A stretch of DNA of 64,000 nucleotides from Thermodesulfobacteriota bacterium (GTDB lineage: Bacteria > Desulfobacterota_D > UBA1144 > Nemesobacterales > Mycalebacteriaceae). The translations under genes and the position numbers were made by a program. Of this stretch, positions 5,986 through 35,592 are shown piece after piece. The stretch lies in contig OZ245366.1 of assembly GCA_965226585.1 (NCBI GenBank), positions 487,423 through 551,422 of the forward strand. The letters are read 5' to 3'. Under the pieces are notes generated by a model. It worked only from the letters and a program-made list of their open reading frames with translations, was not told the DNA's origin and searched no databases. Position 1 is the stretch's first letter. Each line of letters opens with the position of its first letter.

Positions 5986-7896
5986 ATGAACGGAGAAAAA
6001 ATCTGCAACGTTATTGTGATAGGCGGCGGGCACGCGGGCTGTGAAGCCGCGCTTGCGGCGGCGCGCATGGGGCGCAAAACACTTCTGCTTACGGCAAATA
6101 TAGACACAATCGGCGTTATGTCATGCAACCCGTCCATCGGCGGGGTTGGCAAAGGGCATATCGTGAGAGAGATAGACGCCCTCGGCGGCGAGATGGCTAA
6201 AGCCGCAGACGCAAGCGCGATTCAATACAGAACACTCAACACACGCAAAGGCGCGGCGGTGCGCGCCACCCGCTCTCAGGCGGACAGACAGGTGTACAGA
6301 GCGCATATGCGCCGGGTTCTTGAAGAGTGCGAAAATCTTGACATAAAACAGAGAATGGTGGACGGATTTCTTGTTTCCGGGGATGAGGTGAAGGGCGTGA
6401 AAACAAGCCTCGGAGAAACCTTTTTCTCTGACTCCGTTGTCGTTACGCCGGGAACTTTTCCGAACGGGCTTATACACGTTGGAGACGAACGCTACTCTTC
6501 GGGACGCGCCGGGGAAAAAGCGGCGATGGAGATAACCGGCTCATTCAAAGACCTGGGGCTTGAAGTGGGCAGACTCAAAACCGGAACGCCGCCCCGCTTT
6601 GACGGCAGAACAATACGCTGGGACGCCCTTACAGAGCAGAAAGGCGATGAAAATCCAAGACCGTTTTCTTTCTCAAACACCCGGACAGGCATCAGCCAGA
6701 TGTCGTGCTACATCACGCACACAAACGGGAAAACGCACGAAGTTATCAGAAAAAACCTTTCCCGCTCGCCCCTCTATTCTGGCGTGATAAGCGGCGTGGG
6801 TCCGCGCTACTGCCCGTCCGTTGAAGATAAAATTGTGAAGTTTCCCGACAAAGACCGCCACCAGATATTTCTTGAGCCGGAGGGCAGAAACACCTACGAA
6901 GTCTATCCAAACGGCATATCAACCAGCCTTCCGCTTGACGTGCAGACGGAGATGTCCAGAACGATAGAAGGGCTTGAACAGGTTGAAATAATGCGCCCCG
7001 GATACGCGGTGGAATACGATTTTATAAACCCGACACAACTGAACTCGGCGCTTGAATGCAAACGCGCGCGAGGGCTTTTCTTTGCCGGGCAGGTGAACGG
7101 AACAACCGGATACGAGGAAGCCGCCGGGCAGGGGATTGTGGCGGGAATAAACGCCGCTCTGCACTCGCGCGGCGACAGCCCCTTTGTGCTTGACCGCTCA
7201 GACGCCTACATCGGAATCATGATAGACGACCTTGTTACAAAGGGCGTTGACGAGCCATACAGGATGTTCACTTCAAGGGCGGAATACCGCCTTGTTCTGC
7301 GCGAAGACAACGCAGACATCAGACTTATGGAAAAAGGACACCGCGCGGGGCTCATAAGCGATGAACGCTACGAGCGGCTTGTCATCAAAAAACACGCGCT
7401 CAAGAGTGAAGTGGAAAGACTTGAACAGACCCGCTGTGTTCCCGGAAGCCCGGCGGATTTGCAACTGAAACAGATGGGCTCATCGGCGCTGAAAAAACCG
7501 CAGTCGCTCGCAGAGATTCTCAGAAGACCCGCAATCACTTACTCTGAACTCGCCCTTTTTGACACCGTGTCCGCCGAACTCGCCGGTTCAGACACCGCCG
7601 CGCAGGCGGAGATGCAGGTTAAATACGCGGGCTATGTGAAGATGCAGACGGAACAACTCGGCAGGTTCAAACGGTTTGAACGCATGTCCATACCGGAAAC
7701 CTTTGACTACGCCAAAGTGTCCGGGCTTTCCAAAGAGATAGTTCAGAAACTTTCAAGCGCGAGGCCGCGCTCTCTCGGGCAGGCGGGGCGAATATCAGGC
7801 GTTACGCCCGCCGCCGTTTCGGTTCTTATGCTGCACCTGAGGAAAAATCCCGCAAGGGAAGGTCAGTCAACCATCTCGACATCTTCTTCCTCGTAG
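5986..7896 (+). CDS. mnmG: tRNA uridine-5-carboxymethylaminomethyl modification enzyme MnmG (GidA)
   Basis: The FAD-binding N-terminus NVIVIGGGHAGCEAALAAARMG and the MnmG-specific motifs are present. I placed the start at M36 of the track ORF (ATG at 5986). The upstream 35 codons are not conserved. Confidence 0.93.
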   Translation: MNGEKICNVIVIGGGHAGCEAALAAARMGRKTLLLTANIDTIGVMSCNPSIGGVGKGHIVREIDALGGEMAKAADASAIQYRTLNTRKGAAVRATRSQADRQVYRAHMRRVLEECENLDIKQRMVDGFLVSGDEVKGVKTSLGETFFSDSVVVTPGTFPNGLIHVGDERYSSGRAGEKAAMEITGSFKDLGLEVGRLKTGTPPRFDGRTIRWDALTEQKGDENPRPFSFSNTRTGISQMSCYITHTNGKTHEVIRKNLSRSPLYSGVISGVGPRYCPSVEDKIVKFPDKDRHQIFLEPEGRNTYEVYPNGISTSLPLDVQTEMSRTIEGLEQVEIMRPGYAVEYDFINPTQLNSALECKRARGLFFAGQVNGTTGYEEAAGQGIVAGINAALHSRGDSPFVLDRSDAYIGIMIDDLVTKGVDEPYRMFTSRAEYRLVLREDNADIRLMEKGHRAGLISDERYERLVIKKHALKSEVERLEQTRCVPGSPADLQLKQMGSSALKKPQSLAEILRRPAITYSELALFDTVSAELAGSDTAAQAEMQVKYAGYVKMQTEQLGRFKRFERMSIPETFDYAKVSGLSKEIVQKLSSARPRSLGQAGRISGVTPAAVSVLMLHLRKNPAREGQSTISTSSSS

Positions 7897-7991
7897 AATT
7901 CTCCCAGTTCGTTCAATTCCACGTCGCCGACATCCATTTCTTCAGGGTCGTCGTTTCCCGCGTAAACCTGCTCATCAGGGTCCTCAATCAT
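7863..7991 (-). CDS. Possible very acidic 42-aa micro-ORF overlapping the 3' end of mnmG on the opposite strand (speculative)
   Basis: The minus-strand ORF ATG...TGA encodes MIEDPDEQVYAGNDDPEEMDVGDVELNELGEFYEEEDVEMVD. It is below the ORF-track size cutoff. No RBS was evaluated. Confidence 0.12.
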   Translation of the reverse strand: MIEDPDEQVYAGNDDPEEMDVGDVELNELGEFYEEEDVEMVD

Positions 7992-8120
7992 ATTGACGAG
8001 GTCTCTGATTCTTTCGTCTCTTGAAGTAGCCACCTCAACACCCCCTGTGTTGTGATTTAACGGACAGAGCCCGTTTCCGCCCCCATAATATTGACGGACG
8101 GGGAAAAATCAACCCTTTTT

Positions 8121-10190
8121 TTAGTCCGCAATTGAAGCGGCAAAATCGTCCGCGCCGGAAGGAAGTCCGCACGTCCCGTCTTCGCACACATAGACAAGCG
8201 TTTTCCCGTTTCCGCCCGCAGAGCATCCGGCGGCAAAAGGGGCTATGTTGCCGGTCTCAGAGCAGTCCGGTTTTTTGAGCAGAACTGTTGCCCCCGGCTC
8301 GTAGTTTTTCGCGAGCGCGTCCGTAACTTTTTCCGCCCCGTCCGTGCCTTCGGCGATAACAACCTCAAATGTTTTTCCCGCGGCAAACTCAAGCGCGCAG
8401 AGAAGCATTCCGTGTGAAGACGGCAGTTTTTCAACCGACAGCGAAAGAGAGCGGGCAATTTTAGCGGCGTCCTCATCGTACCGGTGGTTTCCCGTCAGGC
8501 GGGATATTTTCATCAGGTTGAGAGCCGCAACCGAGTTTCCGCACGGAAGCGCGCCGTCATGAAACTCCTTTTTCCTCACTATCAGACTTTCCGCCCCCGA
8601 CGGGGTGAAGAAAAAACCGCCTTTTTCCTCATCAGAAAAAAGTTCAATCATCTTGTCGTTCAGCCTCATCGCGGTTTTAAGGCGCGAGATGTCAAACCCC
8701 GCTTCGTAAAGCTCAAGCAGTCCCCAGACCATAAACGCATAGTCGTCCAAGTTTCCCCTGATGGCGGCGTCTCCGTCTCTGAATCTGTGCAGAAGTTCAT
8801 TGCCGTCAAACATATTTGCGAGAATGAAATCCGCCGCAGTTTCCGCCGCTTCAACATATTCTTTCCGCCCGAAAGCTCGTCCCGCTTTTGAGAACGCCGC
8901 TATCATCAAGCCGTTCCAGTCGGTCAGAATTTTGTCGTCTTTGTGCGGACGCGGGCGTTTTTCTCTGCGTTCAAACAGCTTTTTCACCGCAGATTCAGTA
9001 AGCCGCTCCGCTTCGGTTTTGTCTGTGCCCGCAGTTTCCGCCGCAAAGGAAAGCGGTTTTGTTCTGTGCGGGATGTTGGTTCCGGGCATTTTTCCGGTCG
9101 CCTCGTCAACAAAGTTCCCGCCGCTTTTTATGGTAAAAACCTCCGCCGCAATGCGGGCTTCATCCGCTCCCGCCGTCTCTCTGAATTCCTCTTCGCTCCA
9201 TAGGTAGAACTTTCCCTCCTCGCCCTCGCTGTCCGCGTCTTCTGCGGAGAAGAACGCGCCGCCTGAAGCGGTCATGTCTCTCATGACGTATTCAAGCGTT
9301 TTTTCCGCGCCGTTTTTATAGGCGGGGTTTGAGGTGGCAAGCCACGCCTCGGTCAGGGCGGCGCAGATAAGCGCCTGATCGTGGAGCATTTTTTCAAAGT
9401 GCGGCACAAGCCACCGGCGGTCGGTTGAATACCTGTGAAATCCGCCCCCGATGTGGTCGTTTATTCCGCCGTCAAGCATGGAGCCGAGCGTTTTTTCAGC
9501 AACTTCAAGGGATTTGGCATCTCCGGTTCTTTTCCAGTGGCGAAGCAGGAATATCAGGTTTTGCGGAGAGGGGAATTTAGGCGCGTCTCCGAAGCCCCCG
9601 AAAACGGGGTCAAAAGCCGCCGCCAGAGTTTCCGCGCCGTTTTTCAGCAGATCCTCATTGCCCATGCGCCCCTCAGACTGCATCACCGCTTGAGAGTCTC
9701 TGATGGCAATCTCAATGTCTCCGGCGGATTTTTCTATGTCTGCGCGCCGGGAACTCCACACCTCTTTTATCTGCGGTATCAGTTCAACCATTCCGGCTCT
9801 GCCGTATCTGTTGTGTTTCGGTATGTAGGTTGCCGCGAAAAACGGTTTTTTGCCGGGCGTCATAACAACATTCAGGGGCCATCCGCAGTTTCCTCTTGAA
9901 ACTATCTGGCACACGCTCATCAGAACCCCGTCAATGTCCGGACGCTCTTCGCGGTCAACCTTGATGGAGATGAAAACATCGTTCATCAACTCCGCCACTT
10001 CCGGGTCTTCAAAAGACTCCTTTTCCATCACGTGGCACCAGTGGCAGGTTGAGTATCCGACTGAAACGAGAACGGGCTTGTCTTCGCGCGCGGCGGTTTC
10101 AAACGCCTCTCCGCACCAGGGGTACCAGTTCACCGGGTTGCCCGCATGCTGGAGAAGATAAGGGCTTTTTTCTTTTGAAAGTCTGTTCAT
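8121..10190 (-). CDS. Thioredoxin-domain protein of the DUF255/YyaL family (N-acylglucosamine-2-epimerase-like C-terminal domain)
   Basis: The N-terminus ([17 protein letters not shown]...[18 protein letters not shown]) is the DUF255 thioredoxin-like signature. The long alpha/alpha-toroid-like C-terminus is typical of YyaL. Confidence 0.8.
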
Positions 10191-10295
10191 CGGCTTGTCT
10201 GAAACCGCAAAGAAAATACCCGTCCGCGCCGCGCCGTTCCATTATTTTTATGCAATATGTGTCCGGACGGTTTATATTGAAGGCGGGATTTTGCC

Positions 10296-10679
10296 GTGAA
10301 GTTGTATCACAAAGCCGGAGTGGTTGTCCGCAGAAGCGGAGATGACGGGGACGAGATTCTTCTCGTCAGCGCGCGCCGTCATGCCGGTTCGTGGGTTTTT
10401 CCCGCCGGAACGGTTGAAGAGGGAGAAGCCGCCGCGCAAGCCGCCGCGCGCGAGTGCGAGGAGGAAAGCGGATACACCGTCCGCACGGGGGAGGAGATAG
10501 GCGCGGTTACCGTTACGGGAGACGGCTGGACAAAAGAGTTTATTTTTTTCTCAGCCGCCGTTACGGGCGAGGTGGAGAGAAAGGAGAGCGACAGGGAACG
10601 CAAGTGGGTGCGGGTTTCCCGTCTTGAAGACGAGGTTGCCGATGTTTTCGCCCCCATAGCGAAACTTGTGAAAAAATAG
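10296..10679 (+). CDS. NUDIX hydrolase
   Basis: It carries the Nudix box GTVEEGEAAAQAAARECEEESG (Gx5Ex7REUxEExGU). Confidence 0.8.
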   Translation: MKLYHKAGVVVRRSGDDGDEILLVSARRHAGSWVFPAGTVEEGEAAAQAAARECEEESGYTVRTGEEIGAVTVTGDGWTKEFIFFSAAVTGEVERKESDRERKWVRVSRLEDEVADVFAPIAKLVKK

Positions 10680-10736
10680 CCGTTTTACGGTCTGCTCCCG
10701 TTCTGTTAGAATTGGCGCGAAATACGGACTGCCGCA

Positions 10737-11504
10737 ATGGAAAACTACTACGAAAAACTGGCGGGAAGATACAGAACCCTCCGCATGACGGACAACGAGC
10801 CGGTGGACTTTGCCTGCAAACTGCTTTCGTCATTAAAAGAAGGGCGCGTTGAGGTTGCCGACATGGGCTGCGGCGCAGGAAGATACGCCAAACTGTTTCT
10901 GGAAAATCTCGGAGACAACCTTTTTCTCCACTGCTTTGACACAAACGAAGTTATGCTCAACCAGCTTGAGAAATATCTCTCAGGCGAGGGCATAAAAAAC
11001 TTTTCCGCCAAAGTGGCGGACGCAAGAGAAGTTCCTCTCACCGAAAACACGCTTGATGCGGTGGTGTGCTTCAACTCCGTTCACCACATCGGGATTGTCG
11101 GTTTGCTGCAGGAGATTTCAAGGATATTGAAACCCGGCGGTCTGTTTTTTATCTACACAAGGTCGAGAGCCCAAAACGCGCGAACCGTGTGGGGGCGGTA
11201 TTTTCCGCTTTTCCAGCGCAAAGAGTCGCGCCTTTACGATCCGGAAGAGTTTGAGTTCAAGATTGAAAAATTTCCCGAGTTTGAAATTGAAGCCGCAAAA
11301 ACCTTCACCTACGAGCGCGTAACTTCAAAGAAAGACCTTGAAGAAAAGGCGTCCGCGAAGGCATATTCGCCTTTTCATTTCTACGGGCCCGAAGAGTTTG
11401 ACAGGGCGTTTGACGAGTTCAAAAGGAAACTGGAAGAGCAGTTTGAAGGCGATGTGGAGTGGGAGGACGAGAAGATAATGTACGTCCTCAAAAAACGCGC
11501 CTGA
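10737..11504 (+). CDS. Class I SAM-dependent methyltransferase
   Basis: Motif I VADMGCGAGRYA and a post-I acidic residue are present. The substrate is unknown. Confidence 0.7.
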   Translation: MENYYEKLAGRYRTLRMTDNEPVDFACKLLSSLKEGRVEVADMGCGAGRYAKLFLENLGDNLFLHCFDTNEVMLNQLEKYLSGEGIKNFSAKVADAREVPLTENTLDAVVCFNSVHHIGIVGLLQEISRILKPGGLFFIYTRSRAQNARTVWGRYFPLFQRKESRLYDPEEFEFKIEKFPEFEIEAAKTFTYERVTSKKDLEEKASAKAYSPFHFYGPEEFDRAFDEFKRKLEEQFEGDVEWEDEKIMYVLKKRA

Positions 11505-22662: not shown

Positions 22663-23064
22663 GTGAGTGATATTGAAACAAGGGAGGATGTGGAACTGCT
22701 TGTAGACCGTTTCTACGACAAAATGCTCGCGGATTCAATTCTCGGTTTTATTTTCACGGATATTGCGAAGGTTGATATTGATAAACACAAGCCGGTTATT
22801 TGTGATTTTTGGGAAACGCTTTTGTTTAACAAGGCGGTCTACAAACGGGGACCCGAAGTGATGAATGTGCACAAGAGGCTTAATGAAAAGATTCCTCTAA
22901 AAAAAGGGCATTTCAAAAGGTGGCTTTTTCTGTTCTCAAGAACCGTTGACGAATTGTTTGAAGGCAAACGCGCAAGTTTTGCCAAAGAGAAAGCGGATTC
23001 AATTGCGGTGCTGATGCAAAAGAGAGTTGGGGTTGAGGGAGGGGTGGAAGGGAAAAGCATATAG
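22663..23064 (+). CDS. Globin-like protein (truncated haemoglobin family)
   Basis: It is about 130 aa with a truncated-Hb-like pattern (FYDKMLADSILGFIF...FWETLLF). It has a GTG start. Confidence 0.45.
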   Translation: MSDIETREDVELLVDRFYDKMLADSILGFIFTDIAKVDIDKHKPVICDFWETLLFNKAVYKRGPEVMNVHKRLNEKIPLKKGHFKRWLFLFSRTVDELFEGKRASFAKEKADSIAVLMQKRVGVEGGVEGKSI

Positions 23065-23089
23065 TGGTATTCTACGGGAGGTAGTATTG

Positions 23090-23896
23090 ATGGAATTACA
23101 AAAGAAGAAGTCAATTGAAGCTATAGTTCGTTCTGCTGTGGAGTCGTACGCCGTAGGCTTTCAAGCACGCCATGAAGGAGAGGTTGATAATCCTTCTGGC
23201 GTCATCAATATGAAGGTTCATAATGTTTTTATTGAGGCACTTGGGAAAGATATTCAATACTACGCTGCACTTGTACGTTCTTTGGATAGTTCACTCGGAA
23301 ACATGCTTGAAAACATGGCAATCAACATAGCAAAGATGTCATTTGAGGTGAGAACCAATGTTGAAGGTCCGCTTGACCCATCTCAAACACGGAAGATTGC
23401 AAATATTCTGGAGAAGTACAAAAGTCGCAAGAAGGTACCGGCAATATCTGACTATAAGGGTTTGAGAAAACCCCCGAAGGGTGACAAGGCAAGTAAAAAA
23501 CGCCATGAAAGCGATTACTACTTGATTGATGACAAAAATGACAGTCACTATTTGATTGAACTGAAAATTGGCGGTGATCTGGATAACAAGAAAGCCCGTT
23601 CCGAGAAAGAGGCGATTTTAGAACAGTTTGCCATATTGTCTAATACTCTCCCACAAGATAAAGAAATTAAGATTTTCTTTGCAACAGGCTATAACCGCTT
23701 TGGTGAGAATCAGCCTTGGAAACAGGAGCGTGTTCGTCAGTTTTTTGCTGATGAAGAACTACTTGTCGGCAAAGATTTCTGGAATTTTGTATGTTGTTCA
23801 GATGACGGCTATCCTACCGTCATTAATACTTACAGAGAGAGTGCCCACTTGATTAACAAAGCACTCGAGTCGATAAAGAGGACTTATCTTGGCTAA
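23090..23896 (+). CDS. Putative type II restriction endonuclease (PD-(D/E)xK fold)
   Basis: It lies immediately upstream of, and overlaps, a DNA methyltransferase gene. A candidate catalytic motif is ...YYLIDDKNDSHYLIELK (D...ELK). It is AT-rich and its start has a GGGAGG RBS. Confidence 0.5.
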   Translation: MELQKKKSIEAIVRSAVESYAVGFQARHEGEVDNPSGVINMKVHNVFIEALGKDIQYYAALVRSLDSSLGNMLENMAINIAKMSFEVRTNVEGPLDPSQTRKIANILEKYKSRKKVPAISDYKGLRKPPKGDKASKKRHESDYYLIDDKNDSHYLIELKIGGDLDNKKARSEKEAILEQFAILSNTLPQDKEIKIFFATGYNRFGENQPWKQERVRQFFADEELLVGKDFWNFVCCSDDGYPTVINTYRESAHLINKALESIKRTYLG

Positions 23897-24659
23897 AAAA
23901 GTAGAAAAGAGTTATCAATTGCGTCTGGGGGATAGCCATGAATTGATAAAGCAAGTACCCACTTCTTCTGTTGATTTAATCCTTACAGATCCTCCCTATA
24001 ATCTAAGTCCTTATTCTACCGGCAACATTAAGATGTCTTGGCGAAAAGATTTGAACAACGATCTTGCGGACTGGGATAAGGTTGAATTCAAGCCGTCCGA
24101 ATGGGTCAAGGAGTTTAAGAGAATACTAAAACCAGAAGGAAACATTTTTGCCTTCTGTAGTTACAATCTTATTGGCAAATGGCACGAGGTTTTCGACCCT
24201 GAATTTGATACATTCCAATTTATGGTATGGCATAAAACAAACCCAGCACCCAAGATTCGTCGGGCGGGTTTCTTGAACAGTTGTGAAATGATAATTTGTA
24301 TGTGGAACAAAAACCACACTTGGAATTTTACAAATCAAAGAGATATGCACAACTTTATTGAAACACCGATTTGCATGGGTGTTGAAAGGATGAAAAAACC
24401 GAAACACCCTACACAGAAGCCAGTAAGGGTTTTAGAACATTGTATCAACCTTGCTTCGGTGGAGGGTGATGTTGTTTTTGACCCGTTTATGGGAGTTGGT
24501 TCAACAGGAATTGCCGCCCTCAATTTGGATAGGAAGTTTATTGGATTTGAAATAGAAAAAGAATATTTTAAGGCAGCAGAGAAAAGATTGGATGGTAAAC
24601 CTGCCAAACTAGTTTTTGATTGCGATAAGCAAACTTCACGTAAGGTAGGTGTATCATAG
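23889..24659 (+). CDS. DNA methyltransferase, beta-class (N6-adenine or N4-cytosine)
   Basis: The catalytic DPPYN motif comes first, then HPTQKP, then a C-terminal SAM motif FDPFMGVGSTGIAA. This order is typical of beta-class amino-MTases. It has a TTG start overlapping the REase end. Confidence 0.85.
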   Translation: MAKKVEKSYQLRLGDSHELIKQVPTSSVDLILTDPPYNLSPYSTGNIKMSWRKDLNNDLADWDKVEFKPSEWVKEFKRILKPEGNIFAFCSYNLIGKWHEVFDPEFDTFQFMVWHKTNPAPKIRRAGFLNSCEMIICMWNKNHTWNFTNQRDMHNFIETPICMGVERMKKPKHPTQKPVRVLEHCINLASVEGDVVFDPFMGVGSTGIAALNLDRKFIGFEIEKEYFKAAEKRLDGKPAKLVFDCDKQTSRKVGVS

Positions 24660-25278
24660 GGTGATTATAGACTTTCCTGAGGCACAAACATATATTGCCA
24701 AGATAATTTCACAATATGTCAATAGACAAATTCGTGAACGCTCTAAATTGCTTTCAATGATGAATCCGGTACATGTCGTACATGAGGGTGACAGAATTGG
24801 AATTCACCGTGAAGATGGGAGCCGTGAGTCTAAACCACTTACGCTTCATAAGAGTGAGGTCCAAATAACAGGTGATAATGGGGTTGCAATTGGAGCAGAA
24901 GAACTGGTAAAAGGTCTTGATGATATGGTCGGGGATATGTCTCGTCAACTTGAAAAAAGTGTTGTGAGTGGAATACAAGATATCGCCGAGAAAGGCGAGA
25001 ATACAGTCTCAGGCAGTATGGACAATATTGAAAGTATGCAAGATATGCTTCTTCAATCAATGGAGAATATGCATATTGATTTCAAAGATGGTGATCGCAA
25101 TAAGCCAATACTCCCAAGTTTGCTTGTTCACCCCACTATGGGTTCAAAACTCGCCGAACTTGCATCAGGAGAGACGCAGATACAAAAAGATAACTTTAAG
25201 GAACGCGAAAAAAAGATATTGGATGAAAAATATAAGGATTACATAAATGATATCAATTCTCGTATTATCGTAGATTGA
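24649..25278 (+). CDS. Hypothetical protein X (no recognisable domain), third gene of the R-M operon
   Basis: Its start overlaps the MTase stop, and it is followed 1 nt later by the next gene. It is AT-rich. The start codon is uncertain (GTG at 24649/24661, or ATG at 24757). Confidence 0.45.
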   Translation: MYHRVIIDFPEAQTYIAKIISQYVNRQIRERSKLLSMMNPVHVVHEGDRIGIHREDGSRESKPLTLHKSEVQITGDNGVAIGAEELVKGLDDMVGDMSRQLEKSVVSGIQDIAEKGENTVSGSMDNIESMQDMLLQSMENMHIDFKDGDRNKPILPSLLVHPTMGSKLAELASGETQIQKDNFKEREKKILDEKYKDYINDINSRIIVD

Positions 25279-25279
25279 T

Positions 25280-26896
25280 ATGTGCAGTAGTAACAATCAA
25301 AATAGAGACCCTTTTTTACAGAGAGCTATTGAATACTGGCTAGATTCTGCAAACGAACTTGGCTATCAGCCACTTTTCTGTGAGTCATTGATAAACAAAG
25401 GGTATAGTCTCAAATATTCAATTAAAAATACGAGTTTTGAACAGGGAAAGGATGTTGTTGCAGTTGATTCTGAAGGAATACCCCATGCTTATCAATTAAA
25501 GGGTGGAAAGATAACTTTGGATAGGTGGAGAAGAGAAGTTAGACCTGAGATAGAGGCATTAATTGATTGTCCAATAGAGCATCCTGAAATTAAAAAAGAA
25601 GACATGCATGAGTCTCACCTCGTTACTAATGGTGAGTTAGATGATAGTGTTAGGGTTGAAATAAATAGCCTCAATTCCAAGAAATGGAAGGAAACTCCTC
25701 TGCGTTTAGAAACAAGAGGGGATTTGCTAAGTGCTTTTCAGAAAATGGCAGAAGGGATGTTTCCTATTGATGCGCAAATGTACAGACAAATTGTTGATTT
25801 AATGTTTGTGGATGGAGAGGGTTCTCCTAATCTGGATCGAGTAAACAATTTTCTTGTTGGGATTCTACAAATAAACAAAGACGGTAAAGTTCCAAAAGAG
25901 CAGAGGAAAAGAGATATAGCGGCAGCACTTCTTTACTCAACAATTTTTGTAGGGCATTACAGAAAAATGGAAAACCATATTTCCGTTGTCCGGATAATGG
26001 TTTTGTTGCTTTCTCTAATCTTTCATTTAGTCGACAAGCATAATCTTGAAGACAAGTATTGGATTGATTCCTACAAAATCATCTGGAATGACATTGTTGA
26101 AACATTAAAATTATTAGAAGGTGAAATTAAAGATGGTTCTCTTCATAGAATTCCTGAAGACCCTCTGAAGAGTGGACTCAAGCAATTTAGAGAGCATGGA
26201 GCAGTTTCCCTCCTGCTTTCCCTTCAATTGGCAGAATGTATCTCAAACAAAGAAAAACGTAACGATATAGTTGATTACTTAACTCAAGTAGATATAAACA
26301 AACATATTTTACTCTGGGGAGAATCTTCTTTAGTCCCCTACATTTTTATGTCGTTGATATTAAAGGTTCAAGAACCAAAATTCGCGTCTGATATTTTGAA
26401 AAATGCAGCATTAGAGATAATCAGACATAATGGAAGAACATCTAATGAAAAACTAGGTCTGCTTTCTCCTTATTATGATATAGATTATGCAGTAAAAATA
26501 AAATTCGATTTGTTGGAGAAAGAATTCGAGGATCATACACCTCTGCATTCTTATTTTTTAAATCCTCTCGTTCACCTGCTTGCAAGATTTCAAGAAAGAG
26601 CTTTTCTTTCTAGTGTTTGGAAGGAGATTTCCTTCATATATTTTGAAGAGTTTGTATTTGATAATAACATAGACTATTACCTTTGGAGATCCCAAAGAGG
26701 GGAAAATCTTACCACCGCTCCACAGAAACAGCAAAGTTGGTCGGATCTAGAGAATAAATCTTCTCAAACCAGTAGTGATATGCCTCCGAAAACGATGCAA
26801 AGATTTCCAGAATTTTTACCACTTTTCCTCTCAGTATTTCCTTTCAGATTAAATTCTCAAACACTATGTTTTTTGGACAGTCAAATTAATGGCTAA
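25280..26896 (+). CDS. Hypothetical protein Y with an N-terminal Mrr/NERD-like PD-(D/E)xK nuclease signature and a large C-terminal helical domain
   Basis: The N-terminal segment GKDVVAVDSEGIPHAYQLKGGK fits the D-x(n)-E/Q-x-K pattern of Mrr_cat/NERD restriction-endonuclease-like domains. The remaining roughly 420 aa have no recognisable motif. Confidence 0.5.
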   Translation: MCSSNNQNRDPFLQRAIEYWLDSANELGYQPLFCESLINKGYSLKYSIKNTSFEQGKDVVAVDSEGIPHAYQLKGGKITLDRWRREVRPEIEALIDCPIEHPEIKKEDMHESHLVTNGELDDSVRVEINSLNSKKWKETPLRLETRGDLLSAFQKMAEGMFPIDAQMYRQIVDLMFVDGEGSPNLDRVNNFLVGILQINKDGKVPKEQRKRDIAAALLYSTIFVGHYRKMENHISVVRIMVLLLSLIFHLVDKHNLEDKYWIDSYKIIWNDIVETLKLLEGEIKDGSLHRIPEDPLKSGLKQFREHGAVSLLLSLQLAECISNKEKRNDIVDYLTQVDINKHILLWGESSLVPYIFMSLILKVQEPKFASDILKNAALEIIRHNGRTSNEKLGLLSPYYDIDYAVKIKFDLLEKEFEDHTPLHSYFLNPLVHLLARFQERAFLSSVWKEISFIYFEEFVFDNNIDYYLWRSQRGENLTTAPQKQQSWSDLENKSSQTSSDMPPKTMQRFPEFLPLFLSVFPFRLNSQTLCFLDSQING

Positions 26897-26945: not shown

Positions 26946-28037
26946 TCACCCCATCTCATACCCCGTACTCCTTCCGCCTTCTTTGCTTTTCTTTAATATC
27001 TTCAACTCAATCAGCGCGTTAATATCCCTTTGCGCGGTGTCTTGGGAGCATTTTCCCATCTTTGCCCACTTTGACGAAGTGAGTTTGCCCTTGAAGTTTC
27101 CGTCCAGAAGCAAGTTCAAAATCTTTGTCTGCCTGCTGTTGAAAGGCACCTCAGCGTATTCCTCCCAAAAACGCGCCTTATGCAGGATTGCCGACAGCAT
27201 TTTGTCGGAACCCGCTATGGAACGTTTGAGACAACCCAGAAACCAACTCAGCCATTTTGTAATATCAACTCCGCTGTTTTGCGTTTCCTCAAGCTGTCTG
27301 TAGTAGTCCTGCCTCTCTTCCATTATCTGCGTGGACATACTGTAAAAACGTTGCGATGTTTCCTCGGAACGGGCAAGAGCCATCTCCGCTATCGCCCTTG
27401 TTGTGCGCCCGTTCCCGTCATCAAACGGGTGGATAATTACAAACCACAGGTGAGCAACCGCCGCTTTAATCACCGGATCCATTGAAGACGGCGAGTTAAA
27501 CCACGAAAGAAAATCATCCATCTCCTTCGGAACCCGCTCTGCGGGCGGAGCAACAAAATGAACCCTCATCCTTCCCTCGCGCCCCGATACAACCTGAACT
27601 CCGTGAGTACGCCACTTTCCGGTTGTTATCTTGTGAAAACCACTGCGCCCGTCCGGGAAAAGAGAAGCGTGCCAGCCGAAAAGCCGCTTTTTTGTGAGCG
27701 TTTTGTCAAAATTTGTTGTGGCGTCAATCAGTATCTCCACTATGCCGTCCACCTCACGCCCGTACGGTTTGCCCTCATACGTATCTATTCCCAAACGCCG
27801 CGCAACGGATGAACGAACCTCCTCAACATCAAGAAACTCCCCCTCAATTTCACTGGTTTTGATAATCTCTCCCGACAGAGTCCGGAAAGCGGCGTCACGC
27901 CTCAGATTAAAACCGAGACCGCTCATGCGTCCCAGCAAAAGCCCCTGCGTGCGGTGAACCTCCGCCAAAAGAGCAGACAACTCGCCGTCATCCCACTTCA
28001 AAAGGGGCCAACCCTTTTCTTCCCATAAATACGGCAT
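26946..28037 (-). CDS. Fic family protein (DUF4172-type N-terminus, C-terminal winged-helix domain)
   Basis: It carries the Fic motif HPFDDGNGR and an inhibitory-type motif TSEIEGE, with a C-terminal wHTH (KILNLL...SSKWAKMGKCSQDTAQRDINAL). I placed the start at MPYLWEE (ATG at 28037, RBS AGAGG). The 14-codon extension in the ORF track overlaps the operator-like repeats. Confidence 0.85.
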   Translation of the reverse strand: MPYLWEEKGWPLLKWDDGELSALLAEVHRTQGLLLGRMSGLGFNLRRDAAFRTLSGEIIKTSEIEGEFLDVEEVRSSVARRLGIDTYEGKPYGREVDGIVEILIDATTNFDKTLTKKRLFGWHASLFPDGRSGFHKITTGKWRTHGVQVVSGREGRMRVHFVAPPAERVPKEMDDFLSWFNSPSSMDPVIKAAVAHLWFVIIHPFDDGNGRTTRAIAEMALARSEETSQRFYSMSTQIMEERQDYYRQLEETQNSGVDITKWLSWFLGCLKRSIAGSDKMLSAILHKARFWEEYAEVPFNSRQTKILNLLLDGNFKGKLTSSKWAKMGKCSQDTAQRDINALIELKILKKSKEGGRSTGYEMG

Positions 28038-28046
28038 ATTGTGAAC

Positions 28047-28212
28047 CTCTGCGGAGATTAATGTTGCTATTCTCCGCATATTTTGCGGAGAATATAGCCC
28101 GCATTCACCGCAAAATCAACCTTAATCTCCGCACATTCTGCGGAGATTAGCAATTTCTATGACTCATAATTTGGGGGTTTTATGAGTCATAGAACAGTTT
28201 CCTATGACTCAT
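28047..28212. promoter_or_regulatory. Cluster of three perfect palindromes plus half-sites in the Fic 5' region
   Basis: The first palindrome is ATTCTCCGCA-tattt-TGCGGAGAAT (28069-28093). The second is TAATCTCCGCA-cattc-TGCGGAGATTA (28123-28149), with a half-site TGCGGAGATTA (28050-28060) overlapping the Fic RBS. The third is CTATGACTCATAA-N10-TTATGAGTCATAG (28157-28192), with a third CTATGACTCAT copy at 28202-28212. Confidence 0.55.
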
Positions 28213-32771: not shown

Positions 32772-32843
32772 GAGCGCGTAGCTCAGCGGGAGAGCGCTTG
32801 CCCGACACGCAAGAGGTCGCTGGTTCGATCCCAGCCGCGCTCA
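32772..32843 (+). tRNA. tRNA-Val (anticodon GAC inferred); no CCA encoded
   Basis: It folds as GAGCGCG-TA-GCTC-AGCGGGA-GAGC-G-CTTGC-CCGACAC-GCAAG-AGGTC-GCTGG-TTCGATC-CCAGC-CGCGCTC-A. The loop CCGACAC gives GAC at positions 34-36, but position 33 is C instead of the near-universal U. Confidence 0.75.
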
Positions 32844-33280
32844 TGGAGGGAAATCTATTGCTAAAGGATTACCAAGAAAGGACAGATTTTGGGTACATAT
32901 TTCCCGCCAAGAGAAAGGACGGAAGTATGATTATGCTTGTCAGATTTGGAAGACATGATGGGAAGGGGTATGACTTTGAGCTACATTGTATATCTGCCGA
33001 ACACCACAAGGAATGGTTAAAATTAGGACACGCACCATCAGACATTAAGACTGTTAGGCAACACGTCAGTGTTAGTCCACATTGGGAGGACAGCAGTAAG
33101 TGGGTAGTAACTGATGTATCTGCGGATTACGACCAAAAAATTGTAGACTCAAGGGAAGATGCTTTTGCTGAGGCAATTCGTGCAATGACGGAAGATGATG
33201 ACCCTATAAGGGAAAAGATTCCCGATGTTAATCACAGTATTAAATGGTGGATGGATGAAACCGCAAAGTTTGATTGGTGA
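32843..33280 (+). CDS. Hypothetical protein P1 (island cargo)
   Basis: This AT-rich ORF begins at the last nt of the tRNA (MEGNLLLKDYQ...). An alternative start is MIMLVRF at 32927. No recognisable domain was found. Confidence 0.4.
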   Translation: MEGNLLLKDYQERTDFGYIFPAKRKDGSMIMLVRFGRHDGKGYDFELHCISAEHHKEWLKLGHAPSDIKTVRQHVSVSPHWEDSSKWVVTDVSADYDQKIVDSREDAFAEAIRAMTEDDDPIREKIPDVNHSIKWWMDETAKFDW

Positions 33281-33282
33281 AA

Positions 33283-33948
33283 ATGAACTCAGATCTTATA
33301 GAAGTCATCACAACTTACGCTACCAAGTCTCACGGAGACCTGAATGCCTTGTTATCTGGAAAGTCAAAAGACAACATCACTTCTATTCTTGTTGACCTTC
33401 TCACCACTTACTACAATGACAAAAACTCATCAACTTTAAGAGAGTTTGTTCTGGTGTCCCTGAGTGGTTTTGAACAGAACCTCGGTAAAATCGGCTATAA
33501 CGGTTACAAGCATGAGAGTATTGGTAGCAAGACAAAATATTGCGAAGCGAAACCCAAGAATGTCAACACAAACGATCCGAAGCCAAAGAAGCTGAATGGC
33601 GGGGGAAACTTTACGGACTACACTTGGGCGAGACTGGAAAAAGATAAGTCGTCTAACCCAACAATGCTTGTTGGGGGCTTTATAGACGGACGCCTGATTT
33701 ACATATTCAAGTTTCCTTTCAATTCAAAGGATTTTGTTGATAGGCTGGAGCACCAGTTAAAAAACAAGTTTCCTGACGGAGACGTAAGTGGATACTTTCT
33801 CAGAAGTGCTTCTTTTGGCTTAAAACACTACAAAAGTATTGCTAATTTGGATGTTGAAGTTTTTGTAAAAGAGCAAGATTTACCTAAATATGAAAACAGC
33901 ATTACAAAAGGGTTATACTCTTTCATAGAGGAGTCCTTTACCGAATAA
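33283..33948 (+). CDS. Hypothetical protein P2, possible restriction endonuclease partner of the downstream methyltransferase
   Basis: Its start is 2 nt after the P1 stop, and its stop overlaps the MTase ATG (TAATG). It is AT-rich. A possible PD-(D/E)xK-like segment GYKHESIGSKTKYCEAK is present. There is no secure domain call. Confidence 0.4.
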   Translation: MNSDLIEVITTYATKSHGDLNALLSGKSKDNITSILVDLLTTYYNDKNSSTLREFVLVSLSGFEQNLGKIGYNGYKHESIGSKTKYCEAKPKNVNTNDPKPKKLNGGGNFTDYTWARLEKDKSSNPTMLVGGFIDGRLIYIFKFPFNSKDFVDRLEHQLKNKFPDGDVSGYFLRSASFGLKHYKSIANLDVEVFVKEQDLPKYENSITKGLYSFIEESFTE

Positions 33949-34829
33949 TGGAACTCAAGCCTGAACAGTACAGAAACAAACTTATATGTGGTGATACTTT
34001 CGAGGCTTTGCGGTCAATCCCAAACGGTGTTGTAGATGTTGGTGTAACCTCTCCTCCATATAACAAGAAAGAAAAAAACAAGGGCTGGTTGGTAAAGAAT
34101 GTTGTCTACTCTGAATACAAGGACAAAGTTCCTGAAAACAAGTATCAGGCAAATCAAGTTGCTGTTTTGAACGAAATCCACCGTATAACCAAAAGCGATG
34201 GGTCTTTTTTCTATAATCACAAAATCAGGTGGGAAGATGGAGAGATGTTTCACCCTATGGATTGGTTGAGAAAGACCGATTGGGTTGTTAAGCAAGAAAT
34301 CATCTGGGATAGGACTATCGCCGCGAATATAAGAGGGTGGAGATATTGGCAAGTTGAGGAGAGGATTTACTGGCTTTACAAGCCGATTGGTACAAACAAG
34401 AAAGGGAGAGAGCTGGCATCAAAGGATGCAAAGTTAACCTCAGTGTGGCGAGCAGTTCCTGAAAACAACAATCCTCATCCCGCTCCTTTTCCCCTTTGGC
34501 TTCCGGCAAGGATCATCATTTCACTTTTAGAAGGTAAAAAAAGCGGTCTTGTTTTAGACCCGTATGTTGGTAGTGGCACAACTGCGGTTGCCGCAAAATT
34601 GCTCGGCTTTGATTATCTGGGTGTGGATATTGGAGAGGAGTACATTGACTACGCTGAAGAACGTCTTGCAAATGCTGAAAGAGAAAGAAGCAAGATTATG
34701 GGTGAGCAGAGCCTTCATAAAGTCCACAAGACCTTTAAGTCCAGAAAAGAAAGGGGAGAAAATACTGGCAAATATCGTAAAGAGGAAGAATCTAACAAGC
34801 CTCTAACACTCTTTGAGCATAGGAAATAG
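33948..34829 (+). CDS. DNA methyltransferase, beta-class (SPPY motif; N4-cytosine or N6-adenine)
   Basis: VGVTSPPYN comes first, then a C-terminal SAM motif LDPYVGSGTTAVAA. Its size and layout match beta-class amino-MTases. Confidence 0.85.
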   Translation: MELKPEQYRNKLICGDTFEALRSIPNGVVDVGVTSPPYNKKEKNKGWLVKNVVYSEYKDKVPENKYQANQVAVLNEIHRITKSDGSFFYNHKIRWEDGEMFHPMDWLRKTDWVVKQEIIWDRTIAANIRGWRYWQVEERIYWLYKPIGTNKKGRELASKDAKLTSVWRAVPENNNPHPAPFPLWLPARIIISLLEGKKSGLVLDPYVGSGTTAVAAKLLGFDYLGVDIGEEYIDYAEERLANAERERSKIMGEQSLHKVHKTFKSRKERGENTGKYRKEEESNKPLTLFEHRK

Positions 34830-34880
34830 TGCGCTAAGTAAGGGTAATTTGCTAGGGTGGTTTTTATTTTGAGTTTGAAT

Positions 34881-35285
34881 ATGGAAGACAAAGTCCAGAA
34901 AGATTATGATTACAGGCAGGGACTTATTTCCACAGAAACCAGTCTCAGACATTCTTATGACAAATTAGTAGTTGCCATTGCAACGGGTACGGTTTGGATA
35001 AGTGTTTTCTTTGTTGATGGTAGGGAGATGATAGTCTCAGAAAGGTTTATCTTCTGGGGCTGGTTTTTTTCAATTCTTTCCATAGTTTCCGTGTTGTTCT
35101 CAGTCTATTTAGGTATCAAAGCACACAGAAAAGCAGTTGAGCAAAGGGATAAAAACCCTAGCCAGACACACAGGCTAGGTGGAAATTTTTCGCTTTTGTC
35201 GAGCTATTTTCACAACTCTGCCTTAGCCTTTTTGATTGTCGGTATGTGTTTTATATGTGCATTTGTCTTTTTTAATATAAGGTAG
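34881..35285 (+). CDS. Small membrane protein (3 predicted TM), unknown function
   Basis: Hydrophobic segments VVAIATGTVWISVFFV, FIFWGWFFSILSIVSVLFSVYL and LAFLIVGMCFICAFVFF. It is AT-rich. I placed the start at MEDKVQ. Confidence 0.4.
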   Translation: MEDKVQKDYDYRQGLISTETSLRHSYDKLVVAIATGTVWISVFFVDGREMIVSERFIFWGWFFSILSIVSVLFSVYLGIKAHRKAVEQRDKNPSQTHRLGGNFSLLSSYFHNSALAFLIVGMCFICAFVFFNIR

Positions 35286-35300
35286 TACAATTCGGGTGGC

Positions 35301-35465
35301 ATGAAGGACGATAAACAAAATCCTCCAACTCCTACAGAGCCAGAGGAGCGTCCCACTCCTAAGCCTGTTGGGGACAACAGAAGGGATCAGTCTTGGGAAC
35401 CACCGCCACCACCCCCGTCGCCACCATCACCCCCGCCAAAAGAAAATCCTAATCAAGATGATTAG
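35301..35465 (+). CDS. Possible proline-rich 54-aa ORF (speculative)
   Basis: It encodes MKDDKQNPPTPTEPEERPTPKPVGDNRRDQSWEPPPPPPSPPSPPPKENPNQDD. It is below the ORF-track cutoff and sits between the membrane-protein gene and the tRNA. Confidence 0.15.
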   Translation: MKDDKQNPPTPTEPEERPTPKPVGDNRRDQSWEPPPPPPSPPSPPPKENPNQDD

Positions 35466-35520
35466 ATGGACAGTTGGTTTTTTGACAACGCTTGTTATTT
35501 CAAAGCATATACGAACTTCA

Positions 35521-35592
35521 GGCCCCGTAGCTCAGGGGGAGAGCGTTCGCCTCACACGCGAAAGGTCGTTGGTTCAATTCCAACCGGGGCCA
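35521..35592 (+). tRNA. tRNA-Val (anticodon CAC); no CCA encoded
   Basis: It folds as GGCCCCG-TA-GCTC-AGGGGGA-GAGC-G-TTCGC-CTCACAC-GCGAA-AGGTC-GTTGG-TTCAATT-CCAAC-CGGGGCC-A. It is preceded by TTGACA (35482-35487). Confidence 0.85.

Follow-up and report, generated by a model that had tools for sequence, protein, structure and literature searches.

The 64,000-nucleotide stretch of bacterial DNA analysed here (hereafter the window) contains two adjacent genes, designated X and Y, which we consider moderately likely to form a self-contained, previously undescribed two-gene nuclease cassette for defence against phages or other mobile elements. The open reading frame of Y, to which an earlier note on this DNA had drawn attention, is present on the forward strand exactly as that note described it, beginning with ATG at 25280, ending at 26896 and encoding 538 amino acids. 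By alignment and structural modelling, the N-terminus of Y carries an intact and strongly constrained active site of the Mrr type. The catalytic domain belongs, as a divergent member, to the well-known superfamily of PD-(D/E)xK nucleases; what is new is the combination of this N-terminal Mrr-like domain with an unrelated helical domain of 380 amino acids and an obligate partner of 200 amino acids, and with no nucleoside triphosphatase (NTPase).

In the mechanism that we propose, Y would act as the effector and would cut DNA as an endonuclease of the Mrr/MspJI type, with predicted catalytic residues E26, E54, D58, Q72 and K74, while the helical C-terminal domain of Y together with the small partner X would govern when, or on what, the nuclease acts, as a putative sensing or licensing unit. 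Translation of the two genes, which overlap or abut, would be coupled. The defence role is read from genomic context alone, and two versions of it may be distinguished: (a) a type IV-like, modification-dependent restriction activity that would complement adjacent restriction-modification (R-M) systems, and (b) a triggered guard or abortive effector that would cut DNA once a phage cue had been sensed. Both versions are doubtful taken singly, and neither is given preference beyond that level. The features of the pair are as follows.

24661..25278, + strand: gene X, about 205 amino acids (start favoured by the family alignment, in agreement with the public gene call)
25280..26896, + strand: gene Y, 538 amino acids, ATG start (open reading frame; Mrr-like N-domain and all-helical C-domain)
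25280..25759, + strand: N-terminal domain of Y, residues 1-160 (restriction-endonuclease-like core)
25355..25357, + strand: codon of E26, at the start of the core helix (invariant in the alignment)
25439..25453, + strand: codons of E54-Q-G56-K57-D58, the E-x-G-K-D motif (D58 is the predicted metal-binding aspartate, at the start of strand 2)
25493..25501, + strand: codons of Q72-L73-K74, the (E/Q)-x-K motif (on strand 3)
25760..26893, + strand: C-terminal domain of Y, residues ~161-538 (about 12 long helices and a small beta-hairpin)

The active site of Y

Y has no match in Pfam, NCBIfam, PADLOC v2, PHROGs or the sequences of the PDB; the hits that HMMER returned from the PDB sequences with Y, with a Y-family profile or with a profile of the N-domain were spurious only (thiG, glutathione transferase, designed repeat proteins). 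A word-indexed search finds 74 clusters of homologues, and an exhaustive profile search finds 1,531 clusters (at 50% identity) with expectation value E<=1e-3, of which 698 have E<=1e-30. These clusters carry the label hypothetical and are spread over many phyla, cultured Stenotrophomonas among them; with few exceptions the 150 best are near full length, at about 490-570 amino acids.

Conservation was evaluated in an alignment of 210 near-full-length members whose identity to Y has a median of 27% and a minimum of 21%. In spite of this divergence, E54, D58, Q72, K74 and N232 are invariant (210/210), and E26 is unchanged in all 202 members aligned at that position and is likewise invariant in alignments A1 and A9. 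The positions around the putative catalytic residues are nearly as constrained (G56 in 208/210, K57 in 205/210 and L73 in 209/210 members), and 13 residues intervene between D58 and Q72 in 204 of the 210, so that Y carries the Mrr_cat-type D...Q-x-K variant of the active site in the form D58-x13-Q72-L-K74.

The earlier note had based its nuclease assignment on a match to the signature D-x(6-12)-(E/Q)-x-K in the stretch FEQGKDVVAVDSEGIPHAYQLKGGK, which it placed at residues of about 55-80. The stretch is present, at residues 53-77, and it does contain a literal match to the signature, but such a match is no better than chance: there are four literal matches in Y, compared to a mean of 2.0 in shuffled versions of its sequence, and 83.5% of the shuffled sequences have at least one. 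The spacing given in the note also selects the wrong catalytic aspartate, since the literal match uses D63, which is 46% conserved, while the invariant aspartate is D58. The nuclease signal is nevertheless real, because of the conservation of the residues and the structure that they occupy rather than because of the motif match, and neither of the two refutations that the note had named was borne out: the candidate catalytic residues are conserved across homologues, in the counts given above, and AlphaFold2 places a restriction-endonuclease-like core at residues 26-157.

The AlphaFold2 model of Y, computed from a 44-sequence alignment, is a confident one, with a predicted local distance difference test score (pLDDT) of 88.9 and a predicted template modelling score (pTM) of 0.75. 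The core follows the order helix, three strands, helix, strand, helix, strand, helix, with the DSSP assignments H26-39, E43-47, E59-62, E68-74, H80-96, E111-116, H122-133, E141-144 and H146-157. Strand 2 is entered at D58, and strand 3 carries both Q72 and K74; as modelled, this arrangement is the canonical PD-(D/E)xK layout. Y thus shows both the alpha-beta-beta-beta-alpha-beta core and the conserved acidic and (D/E/Q)-x-K residues by which membership of the superfamily is recognized. The best Foldseek match in the PDB is MspJI (4f0q, E 5.5e-3, probability 1.00), which is a type IV enzyme with a D...QxK site. NucS (2vld), EndoMS (5gke) and Nt.BspD6I are also ranked, with probability 1.00 for the first two, and in the viral models of BFVD the first ranks are occupied by phage proteins labelled ‘Restriction endonuclease’, likewise at probability 1.00, by ‘type IV Mrr domain’ proteins and by Rpb5.

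A sequence bridge to the Mrr family is provided by a 511-amino acid gene annotated ‘restriction endonuclease’ on plasmid pdjl-6-4 of Rhodococcus qingshengii, which is matched by residues 5-132 of Y in a tblastn search. Its product clears the Pfam Mrr_cat model (PF04471) with 22.8 bits, compared to a cut-off of 21, and its N-terminus aligns by hhalign to the Y-family profile with a probability of 98.9% (E 2.2e-17), preserving E-x-GKD, Q-x-K and T-x-G. The distant Rhodococcus relative alone passes the Mrr_cat gathering threshold, which is reached by none of the 44 aligned members of the Y family. Of the description of the N-terminus as Mrr/NERD-like in the earlier note, the Mrr part therefore stands by way of this relative, and the NERD part falls, since NERD (PF08378) has no match in Y, in the 44 aligned members or in the Rhodococcus protein. 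The Rhodococcus C-domain shows a weak collinear similarity to that of Y (16.8 bits; hhalign probability 5%).

A third, more divergent branch of X-Y pairs was also observed (loci L067-L073, for example 5331-7551 of L072), in which Y has 531-599 amino acids and is recognized by the family hidden Markov model (HMM) with E of ~1e-70 to 1e-78. In this branch N117-G118 is replaced by T-G, and E26, E54, G56, K57, D58, Q72 and K74 are kept. Together with the Rhodococcus pair, the third branch suggests a wider superfamily of X-associated Mrr-like nucleases.

The helical domain of Y

The earlier note had described the rest of the protein as about 420 residues of helical sequence without a known motif. 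The domain is indeed helical and has no known relative, but it is shorter, at about 378 residues (~161-538), because the N-domain extends to residue ~160; in the model it consists of about 12 long helices and a small beta-hairpin at 454-479. Foldseek yields only low-probability matches to TPR, 14-3-3 and LGN-like structures, and no internal sequence repeats were found in the domain. The Walker A motif (GxxxxGK[ST]) occurs in 0/210 members, and no AAA or NACHT model of Pfam matches. The fold match of Y to LmuA has a probability of just 0.28. One hydrophobic helix (233-251, family-mean hydropathy 1.41) raised the possibility of a membrane protein, which was ruled out: position 238 is E, R or Q in most members, so the segment is read as a core helix and not as a membrane span.

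In addition to the invariant N232, the residues R304, E348, Y398, W447, W487 and R523 are near-invariant in the C-domain, and their conservation suggests a second functional site, which could be a pocket for a ligand or protein or an interface.

These observations bear on the possibility that the pair is a two-component type IV restriction system, in which Y would cut DNA carrying a non-host modification that is recognized by the C-domain, by X or by both. Such a system would be a sub-case of the explanation that we prefer, and we regard it as doubtful. The catalytic domain is of the D...QxK kind found in the type IV enzymes Mrr and MspJI, with which Y shares the PD-(D/E)xK core; no NTPase would be needed; and most X-Y loci have no dedicated methyltransferase. 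The architecture is nevertheless different. Known Mrr enzymes have the catalytic domain at the C-terminus, behind a DNA-binding domain, while that of Y is N-terminal and is joined to a novel helical domain of 380 amino acids and served by an obligate partner of 200 amino acids. Neither Pfam nor the fold search revealed an SRA, EVE, YTH or winged-helix domain or any other known reader of modified bases. The C-domain is, moreover, acidic, and the residues conserved in it (N, R, E, Y, W, W, R) resemble the lining of a ligand or protein pocket more than a DNA-binding surface. The lack of a known reader, together with acidic, pocket-like conservation, argues mildly against the type IV-like version of the mechanism.

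The partner X and its pairing with Y

The earlier note had proposed that Y forms a two-gene module with an upstream partner of 209 amino acids that has no motif. The module is strongly supported, since in 72/73 fetched loci (69 distinct loci when four duplicates are set aside) the gene just upstream of Y is recognized as an X homologue by an X-family HMM, and the single locus with no X match has just 83 nucleotides of upstream DNA. The absence of a motif also held up, in that X has no match in Pfam, NCBIfam, PADLOC or PHROGs and its family has no relative in Pfam or the PDB. The length required correction: X can be read from GTG 24649 (24649..25278, 209 amino acids), but the family alignment favours GTG 24661, which gives about 205 amino acids, in agreement with the public gene call (P0075, 205 amino acids).

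A word-indexed search with the single sequence returned X alone, and a profile query recovered just 11 X clusters; the first of these results is misleading, because comparison of the loci shows that X is conserved. Every Y homologue examined is preceded immediately by a gene of ~198-205 amino acids, and over its whole length X shares ~30% identity with its counterparts in the closest loci. The Rhodococcus sister pair has the same layout, with a 195-amino acid gene upstream that is an X homologue (hhalign 97.7%).

The spacing of the two genes differs between branches. In the branch to which the window belongs X and Y abut with gaps of 1-4 nucleotides, and in the window itself the junction sequence consists of the TGA stop of X, one nucleotide and the ATG of Y. 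In the larger branch the stop of X lies ~35 nucleotides inside the Y frame in most loci (L015-L017 and most of L019-L073; in L015, for example, the genes occupy 7439-8035 and 8001-9659). The retention of this overlap across divergent sequences suggests a constrained translational coupling.

The divergences of X and Y are tightly correlated, with r = 0.90 overall and 0.72 among distant pairs (43 distinct pairs), the observed value being reached in 0/500 label permutations, and the two genes are inherited as one unit. This co-divergence is consistent with a physical complex of the two proteins, and co-inheritance by itself could give the same correlation. X is mildly acidic (median isoelectric point, pI, of 5.5), and the idea that it is a DNA mimic found no support in this value.

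The small upstream gene that overlaps a larger nuclease gene recalls the gene order of type II toxin-antitoxin systems, and it may be asked whether the pair is a selfish addiction module, with Y as the toxin and X as the antitoxin, that stabilizes host islands or plasmids and has no primary role against phages. Such a module would be expected to have the foreign composition of the pair, and to turn up, as the pair does, on a plasmid, in islands with integrases and next to R-M systems, themselves addictive. At ~540 amino acids, with a conserved extra domain of 380, Y is on the other hand far above the size of classical type II toxins, no DNA-binding or autoregulatory domain was detected in X by Pfam or X-family searches, and plasmids hardly ever carry the pair (72,556 records yielded 1 distant relative). 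Addiction as the primary role is accordingly rated quite improbable.

Genomic neighbours and mobility

In the window, X and Y are the last two of four co-directional, tightly packed genes in an island of ~4 kb whose guanine-plus-cytosine (GC) content is 0.35-0.41, compared to ~0.52 in the flanks. The other two encode a type II R-M system, with which X-Y is thus co-operonic. The neighbouring features are as follows.

23090..23896, + strand: TdeIII-like type II restriction endonuclease (Pfam RE_TdeIII, 4.2e-40)
23889..24659, + strand: N6_N4 DNA methyltransferase (Pfam N6_N4_Mtase, 8.3e-41; PADLOC MTase_II, 5.2e-58)
26946..28079, - strand: SoFic-like Fic/DOC protein (PADLOC SoFic, 2.3e-51; Pfam DUF4172 and Fic)

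The start of the methyltransferase gene overlaps the end of the endonuclease gene by 8 nucleotides, and its TAG stop is separated by one nucleotide from the GTG start of X at 24661.

R-M genes adjoin the pair in other lineages as well, and they are of different kinds. In a complete Patescibacteria genome (L010) X-Y abuts a different type II system, with a D12-class methyltransferase and an unrelated endonuclease, and in a Bacteroidota metagenome-assembled genome (L013) it sits inside a type I operon, with hsdS on one side and hsdR on the other. The latter position has a direct precedent in TgvAB, a two-gene type IV system of the GmrSD family, which lies within the type I R-M cluster of VPI-2 in Vibrio cholerae in just the same way (PMC11411939) and so speaks for the type IV version. 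Both X-Y and TgvAB also occur outside R-M loci; X and Y share no family with TgvAB, to judge by the negative PADLOC and Pfam searches.

The three independent physical couplings to three different R-M kinds could also be explained if the pair were a guard that acts by abortive infection, with X (perhaps together with the C-domain) silencing Y until a phage product, such as an anti-restriction protein that disables the R-M system next to it, frees it to degrade DNA indiscriminately. The logic would be like that of PARIS or of PrrC, an ABC-ATPase-like anticodon RNase that resides in the type I R-M locus EcoprrI, where, as for X-Y, the placing of a gene for an effector nuclease inside an R-M operon suggests a functional link with restriction. 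Tight translational coupling would suit a fixed ratio of inhibitor to effector, the co-divergence of X and Y is strict, and the weak TPR-like and 14-3-3-like matches of the C-domain are to folds that are typical of protein-binding sensors. Y differs from PrrC in being a PD-(D/E)xK protein with no NTPase, and X, which is just mildly acidic, is no obvious DNA-mimic inhibitor. Most X-Y loci, furthermore, have no R-M system beside them, which argues against a dedicated R-M guard as the general role of the pair. On this evidence a guard function is an unlikely explanation.

The wider neighbourhood contains further genes of defence type, and no conserved third gene was found beside X-Y across the surveyed loci. 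The pair is adjoined by SIR2-HerA and an integrase in L016 and by integrases in L015 and L017; the Rhodococcus plasmid pair has as neighbours an OLD-type endonuclease, an RNase_T-domain protein and a DEAD helicase; and the 114 neighbours of 24 further metagenomic loci include SLFN_AlbA_2 (3), TIR_2 (2), MmeI/Eco57I-type methylases (2), STAND-type NTPases and a transposase. In L013 a Schlafen-like SLFN_AlbA_2 domain fused to HATPase_c_4 and a helix-turn-helix (7649-9064) lies between Y and hsdR. SLFN_AlbA_2 proteins recur beside X-Y in four loci in all, namely L013 and three neighbours in alignment A8. A separate observation concerns L015, where a 592-amino acid gene with no Pfam or PADLOC match (9662-11440) follows Y on the same strand after 3 nucleotides and is followed in turn by the integrase. 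This gene, which is not conserved in other loci, may provide that lineage with an additional component.

The distribution of X-Y is patchy and accessory. Members occur in Patescibacteria, Bacteroidota, Myxococcota, Peribacteria, Stenotrophomonas/Xanthomonas (Proteobacteria) and Rhodococcus (Actinomycetota), and a scan of one genome from each of 185,579 species, which was pattern-based and so provides a lower bound, found at least 10 loci. The Stenotrophomonas maltophilia member (P0230, with a partner of 198 amino acids) is present on 23 contigs; a blastn search for relatives in E. coli found none, and the protein P0073 has no relatives in phage or plasmid records. The sole contig of the viral collection that carries X-Y is L019 (IMGVR_UViG_3300050335_000119, 38.7 kb), with the pair at 7439-9599. 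The foreign GC content of the island, the patchy spread and the adjacent integrases in L015-L017 point to a horizontally mobile X-Y.

The same distribution bears on whether the pair could instead be a housekeeping factor of DNA repair or recombination, that is, a nuclease like NucS/EndoMS or like a resolvase, accompanied by an accessory subunit. Both NucS and EndoMS rank high in the fold search with Y, and several loci lie among housekeeping genes such as smpB, ftsH, recG, gyrB and dnaE. The patchy, accessory occurrence, the foreign GC content, the variable neighbours and the adjacent integrases are not those of a housekeeping gene, and the sequence bridge leads to Mrr_cat and not to NucS, which together make a repair function very improbable.

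Assessment of the proposed function and relation to known systems

Several results weigh against a defence cassette with Y as an Mrr-like effector, or leave it less sharply defined. No model of PADLOC v2 (PADLOC-DB v2.0.0) matches X or Y at E<=1. Y and its 43 aligned relatives reach no Pfam nuclease model, even at E<=10, for which reason the N-domain is named Mrr-like here and Y is not filed as a member of Pfam Mrr_cat. The Foldseek E-values are modest (5.5e-3 at best). The model of X is poor (AlphaFold2 pLDDT of 62.5) and consists mostly of long helices, and a Foldseek search with it gave no match (best E = 3). The C-domain, with a median pI of 6.0, is acidic and resembles no known reader of DNA or modified bases, which weakens the type IV version in particular. 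In about half of the loci surveyed, all neighbours are housekeeping genes or unknown, and the association with defence is one of listed neighbours rather than an enrichment statistic. Finally, among 2.9 million viral contigs just 1 carries a relative, as does 1 plasmid record, which fits a cellular system and gives no hint of its target.

A more far-reaching reading, which we hold to be less likely than not, is that X-Y is a previously unrecognized, NTPase-free defence system, widespread from members of the Candidate Phyla Radiation to Stenotrophomonas, in which a nuclease of the Mrr type would be licensed by a new helical sensor domain and a dedicated partner. A role as a back-up to R-M systems is possible within this reading, by way of either a new modified-DNA reader fold or the sensing of anti-restriction.

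The logic of an effector nuclease controlled by a regulatory domain or partner is already familiar from Shedu and KELShedu, from Avs proteins and from type IV enzymes. The Avs/STAND anti-phage NTPases, which Gao et al. reportedly described in 2022, are said to join N-terminal nuclease effectors to C-terminal helical-repeat sensors, and the order of nuclease and helical domain in Y is similar, as are the weak TPR-like fold matches of its C-domain; Y differs in having no NTPase module, no repeats in the helical domain and a separate partner gene, and in being one-third to one-half the size. Lamassu differs in that no conserved third gene (LmuB/SMC-like) accompanies X-Y and no PADLOC Lamassu model matches. 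In Shedu (SduA) and the two-component KELShedu, as is proposed for Y, a PD-(D/E)xK effector is regulated by an attached variable domain, and KELShedu adds a second protein (bioRxiv 10.1101/2023.08.10.552793; PMC12577705). The Shedu nuclease (DUF4263) is, in contrast to that of Y, C-terminal and detected by both PADLOC and Pfam, and family searches show no relation between X and KELA. The END nucleases, in which a type IIS-like nuclease is fused to an inactive EndoIII domain (PMC12191111), have an architecture different from that of Y. Literature searches found no paper describing the X-Y architecture.

If the proposed function is confirmed, a compact, NTPase-free two-protein nuclease system would be added to the catalogue of bacterial immunity, along with two new protein families, X and the C-domain of Y, which currently have no annotation in Pfam, NCBIfam, PADLOC or PHROGs. 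About 1,500 clusters now labelled ‘hypothetical protein’ could then be annotated as ‘Mrr-like nuclease, X-associated’. The pair is common in the reduced genomes of Patescibacteria (the Candidate Phyla Radiation, CPR) and is present in clinical Stenotrophomonas maltophilia, and its repeated physical linkage to three kinds of R-M system makes it a tractable system in which to investigate the backing up of restriction.

Other observations in the window

The open reading frame of the TdeIII-like endonuclease is listed from TTG 23027, and a start at ATG 23090 (MELQKKK...) is judged likelier. As listed (23027-23896), the frame runs into the end of a globin-like gene at 22663-23064; with ATG 23090 as the start, the left edge of the island falls near 23065-23090. 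Flanking direct repeats, a tRNA gene and an integrase were sought at the borders of the island in the window, and none was found; no promoter or terminator signal was convincing above shuffled sequences. On the right, the SoFic-like gene is convergent with Y and lies 49 nucleotides past the Y stop. Since its GC content is host-like, it probably lies outside the acquired island, although it is a further gene of defence type at the locus.

A second island of low GC content (0.40-0.43) occupies 32772-35592 of the window, between tRNA-Val(gac) at 32772-32843 and tRNA-Val(cac) at 35521-35592. It contains a 224-amino acid open reading frame (33274-33948) that abuts one of 293 amino acids (33948-34829) with the SPPY motif typical of N4/N6 DNA methyltransferases, and it is probably, from these sequence features, another R-M system of type II that has inserted at a tRNA gene.

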